A DNA stretch of 64,000 nt from Mobula hypostoma. Lineage: Eukaryota. Numbering within the stretch: position 1 is the stretch's first letter; each line of letters starts with the position of its first letter. This document shows positions 3,482 to 50,276 of this stretch, piece by piece. The stretch is taken from NCBI RefSeq assembly GCF_963921235.1, contig NC_086097.1, positions 60,886,001 through 60,950,000 on the forward strand, read 5' to 3'. The translations under genes and the position numbers were made by a program. The notes under the pieces were generated by a model. The model made no database searches. It was not told the DNA's origin and saw nothing but the letters and a program-made list of their open reading frames with translations.

Positions 3482-3695
3482 ACAGGAGATTCTGCAGATG
3501 CTGGAAACCTAGAGTAGCACAGATATAGTGCTGGTAAAATTCAGCATCTACGGAAGGGAATAAAGAGTCAGCATACTGGGCTGAGACCCTTCTTCAGGGC
3601 ATAATGAATCCTGATGAAGGGTCTTGACCCAAAATTTTAACACTATTTTGCTTTCCATACATGCTGCCTGACCTCCAGCATTTTATGTGTGTGAC
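3482..3695. mobile_element. Two Penelope-terminal-repeat-derived fragments in inverted arrangement
   Basis: ctgcagatgctgg...gagacccttcttcagg followed by its reverse-sense partner cctgatgaagggtcttgaccc...ccagcatttt; homologous to 56161-56290. Confidence 0.7.
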
Positions 3696-43759: not shown

Positions 43760-44445
43760 CCAAATAGGCCCATCATATAAATATAATTGCAATAAAAGCA
43801 CGACAGCAACTCTACTTCCTCAGGAGTCAGTGGAAAGTCAGCATGTTATCATAAATCTCAGCAAACTTCTATAGATGTGTGGTGGAAAGTGTTTTGACTG
43901 GGTGCATTATGGCCTGGTATGGGAACACCAAAGCTTTTAAGTGAAAAATCCTACAAAAGGTAGAGGATTTGGCTCAGTACATTATGGGTAAAACCTTCCC
44001 AACCATTGAGCACATCTACATGAAACATTGCTGTAGAAAAGCAGCATTGATCGTCAGAGATCCTCATCACCCAGGCCATGCTCTTTTTTCTCTGCTGCTA
44101 TTAGTTAGAAGGTACAAGAGCCTCAGGACTCGCAACATCAGATTCAAGAACAGCAACTACCCCTCAACCATCACACTCTTGAACAAAAGGGGATAACTAC
44201 ACTTATTTAGGGACTCTTTTATCTTGTTAGTTCAAGCTCATTACTTATTGCTATTTATTGATTTTCTGCATTGGCACTGTTTGTTTACAGTTTACAGTTC
44301 CTAATGTTTAAAATTTACAAATCCTGTTGACTGTTACTGTTCTACAGATTTGTTAAGATGCATAGAGAATAAGAATCTCAGGCTTATATGTGGTGACATT
44401 ATGTACTCTGATAATAAAATTTGCTTTGAACTTTGAACTTTGAAG
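43760..44445 (+). mobile_element. Rex1/Babar 3' fragment with (TTTGAAC)n tail
   Basis: RDPHHPGHALFSLL...RRYKSLRTR...FKNS (43969-44196). Confidence 0.85.
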
Positions 44446-44459
44446 TAGGCCATGGATTA

Positions 44460-46950
44460 CAAAACATAGAAAACACAGAAAACCTACAGCACAATACAGG
44501 CCCTTCAGCCCACAAAGCTGTGCCAAACATGTCCCTACCTTTGAATTACCTAAGATTACCCATAACCCTCTATTTTTCTAAGCGCCATGTACCTATCCAG
44601 GAGTCTCTTAAAAGACCCTATCGTTTCCACCTCCACCACCGCCTCTGGCAGCCCATTCTATGTGTTCACCACTCTCTGCGTAAAAAACTTACCCCTGACA
44701 TCTTCTCTGTACCTACTTCCAAGCACCTTAAAAATATGCTCTCTCGTTCTAGCCACTTCAGTCTTGGGAAAAAGCCTCTGACAATCCACACGATCAATGC
44801 CTCTCATCATCTTATACACCTCTACCAGGTCACCTCTCATCCTTCGTCGCTCCAAGGAGAAAAGGCCGAGTTCACTCAACCTATTCTCATAAGGCATGCT
44901 CTCCAATCCAGGCAACATCCTTCTAAATCTCCTCTGCACCCTTTCTATGGTTTTCACGTCCTTCCTGTAGTGAGGTGACCAGAACTGAGTACAGTACTCT
45001 AAGTGGTGTCTGACTAGGGTCCTCTATAGCTGCAACATTACTTCTCAGCTCTTAAAGTCAATCCCATGGTTGATGAAGGCAAATGCATCATTTGCCTTCT
45101 TAACCACAGAGTCAACCTGCGCAGCAGCTTTGAGTGTCCTATGGACTTGGACTCCAAGATCCCTCTGATCCTCCATGCTGCCAAGTGTCTTGCCATTAAT
45201 ACTATATTCTGCCATCATATTTGACTTACCAAACTGAACTACCTCACACTTATCTGGGTTGAACCTCATCTGCCACTTCTCAACCCAGTTTTCTATCCTA
45301 TCAATGTTCGGCTGTAACCTCTGACAACCCTCCACACTATCTACAACACCCCCAACCTTTGTGTCATCATCAAATTTACTAACCCATCCCTCCACTTCCT
45401 CATCCAGGTCATTTATAAAAATTACAAAGAGTAGATGTCCCAGAACATATCCCTGAGGCACACCACTGGTCACTATCCTCCATGCAGAATATGATCCATC
45501 TACAACTACTCTTTGCCTTCTGTGTGCAAGCCAGTTCTGGATTAACAAAGCAATTTCCCCTTGGATCCCATGCCTCCTTACTTTCTCAATAAACCTTGCA
45601 TGGGGTACCTTATCAACTGCCTTGCTGAAATCTATATACACTACATATACTGCTCTACATTCATCAATGCGTTTAGTCACATCCTCAAAAAATTAATCAG
45701 GCTCGTAAGGCATGACCTGCCTTTGACAAAGCCATGCTGACAATTCCTCATCATATTATGCCTCTCCAAATGTTCATAAATCCTGCCTCTCAAGATCTTC
45801 TCCATCAACATACCAACCACTGAAGTAAGACTCACTGGTCTAAAATTTCCTGGGCTATCTCTACTCCCCTTCTTGAATAAGGGAGCAACGTCTGCAACCC
45901 TCCAATCATCTGGAATCTCTCCCGTCCTCATTGATGATGCAGATATCATCTCCAGAGGCTCAGCAATCTCCTCCTTCGCTTCCCAAAGTAGCCTGGGGTA
46001 CATCCCGTCCAGTCCCGGTGACTTATCCAACTTGATGCTTTCCAAAAGCTCCAGCACATCCTCTTCCTTAATATCTACATGCTTAATCTTTACAGTCTGC
46101 TGCAAGTCATCCCTACAATCACCAAGATCCTTTTCCATAGTGAATACTGAAGCAAAGTATTCATTAGGAGCCTCTGCTATCTCCTGTGGTTCCATACACT
46201 CATTTCTACTCTCACACTTGATTGGTCCTATTCTCTCATATCTTATCCTCTTGCTCTTCACATACTTGTAGAATATCTTGGGGTTTTCCTTAATCCTGTC
46301 CACCAAGGCCTTCTCATGGCCCCTTCTGGCTCTCCTAATTTCATTCTCAAGCTCCTTCCTGCTAGCCTTATAATATTCTGGATCTCTATTTTTACCTAGT
46401 TTTTTGAACCTTTCCTATGCTATTAGACCATAAGACCATAAGACAAAGGAGCAGAAGTAGGCCATTCGGCCCATCGAGTCTGCTCCGCCATTTTATCATG
46501 AGCTGATCCATTTTATCCTATTTAGTCCCACTGCCCCACCTTCTCACCATAACCTTTGATGCCCTGGCTACTCAGATACCTATCAATCTCTGCCTTAAAT
46601 ACACCCAATGACTTGGCCCCCACTGCTGCCCGTGGCAACAAATTCCATAGATTCACCACCCTCTGACTAAAAAAAAAATTTTCGCATTTCTGTTCTGAAA
46701 GGGCGCCCTTCAATCCTGAAGTCATGCCCTCTCGTACTAGACTCCCCCATCATGGGAAACAACTTTGCCACATCCACTCTGTCCATGCCTTTTAACATTC
46801 GAAATGTTTCTATGAGGTCTCCCCTCATTCTTCTAAACTCCAAGGAATACAGTCCAAGAGCGGACAAACGTGGGGTTCTTTTCTTCTTGACTAGATTTAC
46901 AACAGCCTTTGTACACCATGATTCCTGTACCCTACCATCCTTTCCCTGTA
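44460..46950 (-). mobile_element. Relatively well-preserved CR1 ORF2 (RT) with nested CR1 3' copy at ~46425-46870
   Basis: ORFs 45677-46306, 45045-45680 and 44658-44957 (NFRPVSLTSVVG, DFSKAVDKVPH, GVPQG, KFDDDTK); (aacatag) tail; inner copy has (gaccataa)n tail. Confidence 0.92.
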
Positions 46951-47104
46951 TGATGCCGTCTTCAAAGCAAAAATAGTCCGTACCAATGCATTTCAAATTG
47001 TAGTCAGAGATTTCAACCAGGCTTGTTAAAAGAACGCCCTATCTATTTACCATCCATATGTATCCTGTAGTACCAGAGGTCCCAACACACTTGACCACTG
47101 TTGT

Positions 47105-47656
47105 GTTCGTCCATCGTCAACGTTGATGAGGACCTCAACACCATTATGGTGTCCAGACTAGTGCGTGATTTGGATTTGAGTGAGGGAGAGATGCACAGCA
47201 TCAGCCTCACTCCCTCTTCCCAATTCCCATCTGGATCCAGTGGCAATACAGAGTTGAGACGGCTGGAGATGGCACTAGGCACAGTGGATGACCAGGACGT
47301 CTTCTGTGTCTTGTCTTGCTCTACATGTTCCACGACGCTTGCAGAGACTGCCTTCTTGACCGTTGGACCTTCCATTGGTCTCATCCACTCAATCCGCTAG
47401 AGTTTGTCTTCACATGCTGGGATAGACAACTCCCTATCTCACCGAGGGCTTGATACCTGTGGCTACCCTCACCTGGTTTAGCCGGCTTGTCAAAGCCGTT
47501 GCCCAGGGTGTGGCTGCTGTCGCATGCAAACAGCTACAGGGAGTCACAAGTGAGAGCTGAGTGCCAGGTGGGGACCAAAGGTGGACTAATCGCCTTGAAA
47601 AGGACGCGACATGTTCCCCCACTAGAGGTGCTACCCCTCCCTGACACCCATACACT
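47105..47656 (-). mobile_element. Non-autonomous RTE-5'UTR-derived retroposon
   Basis: 8-bp TSD actgttgt (47097-47104, 47657-47664); no coding motifs; sequence resembles the 5' UTR of vertebrate RTE-clade elements (from recall, not a search). Confidence 0.7.
47468..47650 (-). ncRNA. Candidate HDV-like ribozyme (variant, possibly inactivated copy)
   Basis: Hand-folded nested double pseudoknot: P1 GGGUGU/ACACCC, P2 CUCACUUG/CAGGUGAG, P3 GAC/GCC (one mismatch), L3 starting UCC, P1.1 CC/GG, P4 CGGCUU/AAGCCG, J4/2 GCUAAA. Confidence 0.55.
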
Positions 47657-50276
47657 ACTGTTGTACTAAGATAAGGAATGCCTACCGTTTCATGCCCCAG
47701 ACTGTATTTCAGTAAATCAGATCACTTAGAGGTCCTTCTCCCATCTGCATTTCAGCAGAGGTTAAAGAGCAAAGCTCTAGAGATTAGGACAACAAATATG
47801 TGGTCATGGGAGGCAGAGGAGTGGCTACAGGATTGTTTTGAGTCAGTGGATTGGGCCTCCTTCAAAGATTCATCTGTGGATCTGAATGAATACACCATAG
47901 TGTTATTGACTTTATTAAACCAGCCCTAGATGAGTGTGTCCTCACAAAATCATTCAGAGTCTTCCTCAACCAGACACTTGGATGAACGAGGCGATCCACA
48001 GTCTGCTGAGGGCCAGATCTGAGTCATTCAAGTCCGGTGACCAACTAAGTTACAAGATGTCCAGGTCCGATCTCCAGAAAGCCATCTCATGAGCAAAGTG
48101 GCAATGCGGACTAAACTTGAATCAACAAAGGACATTCGACAGAAGTGGCAGGGCTCGAATGCTTTCACTTCTTATAATATAAAATCAAGTGACATAGGTG
48201 ACAGTAGGGCTTCACTTCCAGATGAGCTCAATGACATCTCTACTCGCTTAGACCATCAACTGTGGAGGAACCATCACAAGTTCCCACAGCTCCCCATGGA
48301 ACAGAGACAGGCTCGCCCTAATCAACATCAATGGGACTGCAGCTGAGAAGGTGAGTAGTTTCAATTTCCTCGGTATACACATCACCGAAGATCTCGCCTG
48401 GACTGTACACACAGGCTTTGTGATAAAAAAAAACACAACAGTGTCTTTTCCACATCAGGTGACTGAAGAAGTTTGGCATGTGCCCCCAAAATCCTCAAGA
48501 CCTTCTACAGGGGCACCATTGAGAGCATCCTGACTCACTGTATCACTGCCTGGTACAATAACTGCTCCAACCTTGATTGCTGGGCACTGCAGAAAGTGGT
48601 ACAGACTGCCCAGTGCATCTGTGGATGTGAACCTCCCTCCATTGAGGACATTTATACAGTAGTAGGTTTGTAAAGAAGGCCTGGAAGATCATTGGGGACA
48701 CCAATTACCCCACCCATAAACTGTTTCAGCTTCTTCCATCTGGAAAACAGTACTGTAATATTAAAGCTCTGACCAGAAAGCTACAGGATAGCTTCTTCCT
48801 ACAAGCCATTAGACTTATAAGTTCACATGTCTGTACATTGCGATGGAGTCATAATGCAAAAATTTTTACTCTCTCATGTAGTGGGACGGATGTAGATTTA
48901 AATAAATTAAATACATTCAAATGATAGTGTGAGTTCAATCTCAGAGCCTTCGGTGGAGTGAACCCAGAAAAAGCATCCAACCCAGACTGGATACCTGGCC
49001 AAATACTAAAGATCTGTGCTGGTCAACTGGCTGGAGTGTTCACTGCACTCCTGAGCCTCTTGCTTCAGCAGTCTGAGATACCCACCTGCTTCAAGCAGCC
49101 TTCAATTATACCATTTCCTAAGAAGAGTGTGGTAATTTGCATCAGTGACCATTTCCCAGTGGCCCTTACGTTCATTGTGGTGAGGTGTTTTGAGAGGTTG
49201 GTGATGAAAGATATCAACTCTTGCCTGAGAAGTGACTTGGATCTGCTCCAATTTGCCTACTGGAGCAACAGGTCCACAGCAGATGCCATATCATTGGCTC
49301 TTCACTCAACCTTGGAACATTTGGGCAGCAAAAATACATACATCAGGATGCTCTTTATTGACATCAGTTAGGTATTCAATACCATCATCCCCTCAAAGTG
49401 AATCAATAAACTTCAAAACCTTGGCCTCAATACCTCTTTATGCAGTTGGATCCCTGACTTCCTCACTTACAAACCCCAGTCGGTTTAGATTGGCAATAAT
49501 ATCTCCTCCACAGTCTCCATTAGTACAGGTGTACCACAAGGCTGTGTACTCAGCCCCCTGGTCTACTCACTTTACACTTGTGACTGTGTGGCTAAGCACA
49601 GCTCCAATGGCATATTGAAGTTTGCTGATAACACCACTGTTGAAGGCTGAATCAAAAGTGGTGATGAATCAGCAGGTAAGAGGGAGATTGAAAATCTGGC
49701 TGAGTGATACCATCAGAACAACCTCTGACTCAATGCCAGCTAGGCCAAGGAGCTGATTGTTGAGTTCGGAAGGAGGAAACCACAGGTTCCTGAGCTAGTC
49801 CTCATCAGCAGATCACAGGTGCAGAGAGTCAGCAACTTCAAATTCCTCGGTGTTATCATTTTGGAGGATCTGTCCTAGGCTCAGCAGATAAATATCATTA
49901 TGCAGAATGCACAGCAGCGCATCTGTTTCCTTAGGAGCTTGTAAAGTTTCTGCATGGCATCTAAAAATTTTGACAAAATTCTGTAGATGTGTAATGGAGA
50001 GCAAATTGACTGGCTGCATCATGGCATGGTATGGAAAATGCTACAAAAAGTAGTGGATTGAGCACATCTACATGAAGCATTGTCGCAGGAAAGTAGCATC
50101 TATCATCAGGGACCCCCTCCACCTAGATTGTGCTCTCTTCTTGCTGCTGCCATGAGGAAGAAGGTACAGGAGCCTTAGGATTCATCTCTTGTCCTCAATA
50201 TTTAATTGGTTACTTATTATTATTATTAGTATTATTTACTTATTTATTCATCGATTCTATTATGGTTATTATTCTA

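Follow-up and report, generated by a model that had tools for sequence, protein, structure and literature searches.

A non-coding RTE element in the window

The window, by which we mean the whole 64,000-nt stretch of Mobula hypostoma DNA that was analysed, carries on its minus strand a short, non-coding and non-autonomous RTE element (Table 1). Its start is placed at 47656 because of the 8-bp target-site duplication that bounds it, as an earlier note on this DNA had proposed. The element consists of the 5' UTR of a parent LINE (family positions 1-516) joined to a 3' tail (family positions 519-563), and the window copy has diverged from the family consensus by 6.5%. It sits (44430-49618) among decayed, nested fragments of LINEs in both orientations, some of them with reverse-transcriptase-like frames.

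The earlier note had described an HDV-like double pseudoknot heading an RTE-derived element, and both the fold and the link to the parent are supported by our results. The UCC at the start of L3, the hairpin inserted in L3, P3', P1', the P1.1 GG, P4, the J4/2 C and P2' were all found on the minus strand as first described, and so was the A-C mismatch in P3, a G-to-A change that occurs in 6 of 78 copies. P2 had been located correctly (47554-47547), but its length was understated.

The window copy itself is probably a dead ribozyme, because its P1 is 3 nt shorter and its P3 carries the mismatch. In all it fails three P1 pairs and one P3 pair and lacks a P1 of 6-7 bp, which agrees with the original expectation of an inactive copy in an intact family. 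Neither the strict nor the relaxed descriptor used below matched it, and folded alone it scored no better than shuffles (z -0.71). At E-values up to 10, Rfam searches matched no ribozyme family in this region of the window, in one near-consensus copy or in two copies of a second family, bearing out the prediction that standard descriptors would miss this RNA.

Table 1. Features of the element in the window (positions are those of the window; HDV numbering by analogy).
Feature	Position	Strand	Remarks
5' target-site duplication, 8 bp	47657..47664	-	twin copy at 47097-47104
3' target-site duplication	47097..47104	-	matches 47657-47664
Whole element, 552 bp	47105..47656	-	bounded by target-site duplications
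P1 5' strand, remnant (family positions 4-7)	47652..47655	-	from copy comparison; partners in relatives
Second copy of P1 motif, forming P1.2 5' strand	47640..47649	-	taken as P1 in the earlier note; one G lost here
Folded interior of J1/2 domain	47569..47639	-	fold z about -3 in 3 of 5 families and about -1.8 in the others
P1.2 3' strand	47559..47568	-	from folding
P2 5' strand, 10 bp	47547..47556	-	one two-sided change among 5 pairs counted
P3 5' strand	47543..47545	-	middle G to A here (A-C mismatch)
L3 core	47535..47542	-	U20 = 47542; C21/C22 = 47541/47540 (P1.1); G25 = 47537
Hairpin inserted in L3	47516..47534	-	5-6 bp stem and 5-9 nt loop across families; folds in 5/5 intact families
P3' (47514-47512) and P1' (47511-47505)	47505..47514	-	last base of P1' C to U by CpG decay
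P1.1 3' GG (47504-47503) and J1.1/4	47499..47504	-
P4 hairpin, 6 bp	47483..47498	-	two-sided changes in 3 of 6 pairs
J4/2, candidate catalytic C at 47481	47476..47482	-	invariant in 6/6 rows; role by analogy with HDV C75
P2 3' strand	47466..47475	-	pairs with 47556-47547
Remaining RTE 5' UTR, up to internal-deletion junction	47146..47465	-	match to parent
RTE 3' tail: stem-loop and short AAC repeat	47105..47145	-	91% match to parent's 3' end

The family derives from a LINE by internal deletion

A DNA search of the animal's own genome (3.48 Gb) gave 4,702 candidates, 40 of which were scored, and an exact 33-letter core pattern matched at least 1,112 times in the genome, compared with 0 for the reversed control. 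As an unbiased sample we took 50 core matches by position order; one was the window copy, leaving 49 others. The family consensus is 563 nt long, the mean divergence of the 49 copies is 3.7%, and 11 of them retain every pair and core base in the P1 register given below.

In one copy (L063/L081) the sequence runs on past position 516 into what is left of an endonuclease and reverse-transcriptase frame, now decayed, before closing with the same tail. L081 matches the family at positions 48-516 (97%) and 519-563 (91%), and these flank about 2.9 kb with the coding region. Since the coding middle of L081 lies between the shared ends, the short element arose by internal deletion from a LINE of RTE build: a bipartite, non-autonomous RTE with two ends common to a coding parent and the middle deleted. 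The parent has a single frame with AP endonuclease and reverse transcriptase, a short-repeat tail and target-site duplications; Pfam detected RVT_1, plus Exo_endo_phos below the cut-off on a 94-aa piece. A near-intact parent (L082), which starts at family position 1, has an open frame of 1,109 aa, full-length protein homologues measure approximately 1,060-1,100 aa, and the named protein matches of highest identity (84-88%) come from ray and shark. By this architecture the parent is labelled an RTE.

Bipartite RTE elements are already known (PMC5786205). RTESINE1/2, WALLSI3 and RTE-N2_Lch likewise join a 5' UTR to a 3' tail by internal deletion and retain the 5' end, but the available text of that source describes no structure for their heads, unlike the head of the Mobula family. 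Three motifs of our family are absent from its supplement, and a literature search found no paper carrying four of its motifs; the family may already bear a name in Repbase or Dfam.

The same genome holds a second, older family with an equally wide L3 (169 matches at up to 2 mismatches). Of its 16 copies that were fetched, at least 7 begin, judged by eye, at a doubled P1 motif. Six further loci (L083-L088) represent sister RTE families, which have UTR positions 232-505 in common at about 76%; no HDV-like head was present in the approximately 1 kb fetched at each, and GC-rich heads were found instead.

The P1 helix starts at the first base of the element

The family begins with a 7-nt P1 motif that is repeated after a 2-nt spacer, so that the motifs lie 9 nt apart. 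The earlier note had assigned the P1 5' strand to 47649-47644. This is the second motif, which is paired inside J1/2; the true P1 5' strand is the upstream motif, its first G is the first base of the family, and the cut site proposed originally was therefore 9 nt off. In the window copy family positions 1-3 are lost (the equivalent of G1 would be 47658, within the target-site duplication), and the U that had been read as a change at G1 belongs to the spacer between the motifs. The earlier note had asked whether the 5' ends of copies cluster at G1. Of the 49 copies, only 3 start at the G1 first assigned; 27 begin at the corrected G1, position 1, and 6 at positions 2-3 (33 within 1-3), while 8 begin at positions 6-14 and 8 further in. 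The flanks upstream of these 5' ends have no sequence in common.

With the first motif, P1 forms 7 of 7 pairs, opening with a purine-pyrimidine pair, in families 1 and 2 and in the metagenome RTEs L090, L102 and L124. Compensatory swaps preserve this pairing in L090 (pair 2 is U-A) and L124 (pair 1 is A-U). A partial energy model, without P2, P3 and P4, favoured the first-motif register by 12 kcal/mol. The second motif closes the folded J1/2 domain as P1.2 in all five families (z -3.1, -3.4, -3.2, -1.7 and -1.9), and when this stretch of the window copy was folded alone P2, the L3 hairpin and P4 formed and the second motif paired with 47568-47558, not with P1'.

These data bear on a reading that places the cut ahead of the second motif (family position 10), or allows it at either one. 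In families 1, 2 and L102 each of the motifs is able to make 7 pairs with P1', 3 of the 49 copies start at positions 9-10, and R2 elements with a duplicated P1 have been proposed to cut at either copy (PMC3774820). However, the 8 copies are spread across positions 6-14, so the 3 at 9-10 form no peak beside the 27 at position 1. A cut at position 10 would also remove the first motif from the progeny, in L090 and L124 the second motif falls short of 7 pairs, and in every family it is taken up by P1.2. We therefore regard cutting at the second motif as very unlikely. The R2 ribozymes with duplicated P1 likewise have two tandem candidate P1 5' strands and a conserved G25 in L3, and their P1.1, P3 and L3 are described as approximately 15 conserved nucleotides; according to the part of PMC3774820 available, their duplicate stems from the 28S target sequence, whereas that of the Mobula family belongs to the element and is paired off in P1.2.

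An A-C mismatch at P1 pair 6 is common to 11 of 61 copies, a sub-lineage that still starts at positions 1-3. Since this sub-lineage has spread with its ends in place, a perfect P1 is unnecessary for setting the end.

Relatives and conservation of the core

Relatives were collected with an alignment of 22 homologous proteins, from which we used the best 80 of 472 metagenome loci; in 61 of these the frame was preceded by 400 nt or more. A strict descriptor requiring U20, G25, P1.1 and the J4/2 motif matched 11 of these 61 RTE 5' UTRs on the sense strand, compared with 0/61 on the antisense strand, 0 in each of five shuffles, 1/80 on the coding side and 0/80 on the coding antisense. Three of the 11 have an L3 of 26-28 nt (L090, L102 and L124) and eight one of 7-8 nt (two being near-duplicates). 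With P1 and P4 left out of the descriptor there were 15/61 sense matches, 1 antisense, and 0, 0, 0, 0 and 1 in the shuffles. All counts are drawn from these controlled versions, an earlier loose descriptor having given many implausible matches with no control.

Chance pairing in a GC-rich UTR would account for the poor fold of the window copy taken alone and for its lack of an Rfam match. This explanation is exceedingly improbable given that strict matches fell on the sense strand of the RTE 5' UTRs only (11/61 versus 0), that helices change in a compensatory way, and that copies end at G1.

A profile search added L165, a decayed, 5'-truncated wide-loop copy in which P3 and the hairpin are broken. 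Scans by DNA pattern gave 0 matches in metagenome contigs and 0 in viral contigs, and a protein-based scan of viral contigs also gave no match. The protein-based scan of prokaryote genome contigs returned five loci, one of which was added to the first tree. The contig L169, assigned to a bacterial metagenome-assembled genome, codes for an RTE-type protein of 67% identity and is probably host contamination. On the protein tree the four wide-loop elements do not form one clade (75 rows; also with 13 rows, AU p 5.6e-9 under a simple model), and all four fall inside one 9-row group of the 13-row tree. The tree fits both a single gain of the hairpin with losses and swapping of heads between lineages.

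Covariation was counted over six aligned rows, L165 included; P1, P1.2 and the outer five P2 pairs, where the alignment is off, were excluded and read per family. Of 120 cells, 94% pair, compared with 14-47% in slid controls. Two-sided changes occur in 4 of 20 pairs, three in P4 and one in P2. None of 500 shuffles reached the pairing score, a result that related sequences can also give without structure. P2 and a 3-bp P3 form the outer pseudoknot; compensation in P3 was seen only in L094, and P3 is broken in the window copy and in L165. P1.1, formed by the L3 CC with the GG after P1', is invariant in 6/6 rows, which gives no covariation signal. U20, C21, C22, G25 and the J4/2 G-C-U-A-A, with its C followed by A, are likewise invariant in all six. 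The covariation called for in the earlier note was thus found in P1, P2 and P4, and for P3 in L094, whereas the L3 hairpin shows one-sided changes only.

Four elements with proteins 48-61% identical and remaining UTRs 54-69% identical retain a core of 74-89% identity (shuffles about 50%). Within family 1, substitution rates are 1.5-3.8% in most core parts and 2.0% in the rest of the UTR, so that the core is not clearly lower. By eye, J4/2 in family 1 could instead pair with the nucleotides that directly follow P2', a pairing that is not kept in L102.

A hairpin widens L3

L3 measures 26-28 nt in families 1 and 2 and in the three intact metagenome RTEs, with a hairpin after the G25 position. 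The widening of L3 claimed originally was therefore confirmed: the hairpin folds in each of these five intact families, and its loops differ in length. In its outer four pairs we counted two changes on one side and none on both. HDV-like ribozymes have an L3 of 7-8 nt (8 nt in genomic HDV, 7 in antigenomic HDV and 7 in CPEB3; bioRxiv 2022.09.22.508989), and because of this difference in length we file the RNA as a variant and not as a plain HDV-like member. L094, whose P1 5' strand falls outside the assembled contig, agrees in P2 and in the start of L3 and shows compensation in both P2 and P3, and its L3 is 7 nt long with no hairpin. This places the insertion after G25-N26 and indicates that the same core exists without it. 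The HDV base at the insertion point is U27, which is probably dispensable, the literature searched containing no confirmation. We found no natural L3 hairpin in HDV-like ribozymes in the literature searched, and one might appear in Ruminski 2011, Webb 2009 or Weinberg 2015 or in their supplements; the available parts of PMC4035085, PMC9901934 and PMC1874588 contain nothing on L3 hairpins.

In family 1, L090 and L102 the hairpin loop contains a self-complementary hexamer (window 47529-47521); family 2 and L124 have none. The hairpin could on this basis be a regulatory or dimerisation handle, whose loop pairs two RNAs or which keeps the core off until a partner binds. The hexamer carries a two-sided change between L102 and L090, L3-L3 dimers occur in crystals of the CPEB3 ribozyme (bioRxiv 2022.09.22.508989), and the heads with the hairpin do not group as a single clade on the protein tree. 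However, 6-11% of loop shuffles contain such a hexamer, the three families of five that have it are not independent draws because the families are related, one extra pair inside the hairpin would explain the L102/L090 change, and one gain with several losses fits the tree without head swaps. We consider a handle quite unlikely. A broader version, in which these RNAs form a natural HDV-like sub-class across many animal RTE lineages, with a selected hairpin (self-pairing loop or RTE-protein site) coupling cutting to RNA pairing or packaging and with heads moving between lineages as modules, is a speculative proposal that we would expect to fail.

A putative self-cleaving head

HDV-like ribozymes are established at the 5' ends of R2, L1Tc, RTE and baggins elements (cited in PMC6765202 and PMC5786205, from Ruminski et al. 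2011), and the RNA of promoter-less RTEs is proposed to be cut from host transcripts by such heads (PMC6765202). As far as these sources describe them, they have in common with the Mobula family the nested double pseudoknot, a cut site at the first base, an RTE host, the J4/2 C and U20/G25; they differ in their L3 of 7-8 nt. We think it likely, with a probability of roughly 0.75, that the first approximately 195 nt of the family act as a self-cleaving ribozyme of HDV-like type, freeing the element's RNA from host read-through transcripts by a cut just before position 1. The J1/2 domain would fold first, its closing helix P1.2 locking the second P1 motif away, and the first motif would then pair with P1'. 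P1.2 and the long P2 would draw P1 and P2 together, as measured for drz-Agam-2-1, a mosquito ribozyme, which this 'pinch' speeds by up to three orders of magnitude (PMC4908430). That ribozyme likewise has a large folded J1/2 closed by P1.2, short linkers and a P2 of more than 7 bp; the available text mentions no L3 insertion or doubled P1 motif, whereas the Mobula P1.2 is built from the P1 duplicate. The L3 hairpin, lying after G25 and outside the U20-G25/P1.1 core, would be an add-on that the core tolerates, and the J4/2 C would serve as general acid; G25 and this C are required in other HDV-like members (PMC13635239, PMC3774820). The freed RNA, full-length or internally deleted, would be copied by the parent's enzyme.

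Several points speak against cleavage. A transcription start at +1 would equally give sharp 5' ends, the sister RTE families at six loci of this genome have spread without this head, the outer hairpin pairs lack two-sided change among the five intact families compared, the P1-mismatch sub-lineage keeps its ends at positions 1-3, and core substitution rates within family 1 are not clearly below those of the remaining UTR. Contigs, which cannot show RNA ends, were examined from four runs. In one RNA run, a relative's contig begins at G1 directly after a sequence that we take to be a sequencing adapter, a weak hint in favour; in another RNA run, and speaking against cleavage, two contigs pass through the 5' end into the flank, though these could represent either RNA that was never cut or DNA. 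Run X18 (small share) yielded a single internal fragment and was left out.

A further reading is that the fold is of ribozyme descent, that the hairpin has killed or crippled catalysis, and that the structure is kept for another job, such as RTE protein binding, translation start or RNA stability, the 5' end then being a transcription start. A role in helping translation and protein binding has also been proposed for HDV-like heads (PMC6765202), our literature search found no wide-L3 HDV-like ribozyme, and the P1-mismatch sub-lineage still starts at position 1. Against this, all catalytic positions are invariant across the six aligned rows, compensatory changes keep P1 paired to the element's first base, and a non-catalytic fold needs no end at the first nucleotide of P1. 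Loss of catalysis is thus an unlikely explanation, and self-cleavage remains our preferred reading.

HDV-like heads on RTEs being established, the L3 hairpin is a new structural variant that is well supported as a fold, with putative activity. L3 contributes to the active site, its length is taken as fixed (7-8 nt), and descriptors so limited cannot detect wide-loop ribozymes. As 3 of the 11 strict matches in RTE UTRs have wide loops, the number of RTE ribozymes in vertebrates and invertebrates may be underestimated. Should the RNA cut, it would offer a new site at which a helix can be added to the HDV fold, which would help in designing switches, and family 2 with the hairpin and L094 without it form a natural control pair. 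The accepted view of how RTE RNA 5' ends form is unchanged.

Observations at the element's boundaries

The base before position 1 is T in 18 of the 27 full-length copies, against a background of 30% (p about 1e-4). HDV cleaves fastest with U at -1 (PMC1874588), but this excess could be due to the enzyme's choice of target alone.

The deletion junction (window 47156-47134) lies where 11 bp of the parent's 5' UTR are complementary to its 3' tail (L081 571-581 with 3485-3496). In 6 of 12 full-length metagenome RTEs the longest complementarity between 5' UTR and 3' end (8-12 nt, of differing sequence; controls 6-10 nt) lies 342-375 nt before the frame. Long-range pairing of 5' UTR and 3' tail could have guided the internal deletion. 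Four of the 49 copies (L044, L050, L053 and L075) carry a tRNA-like SINE of about 140 nt at the junction (about position 516); the inserts are 76-87% alike, and the four copies have the appearance of a composite subfamily.
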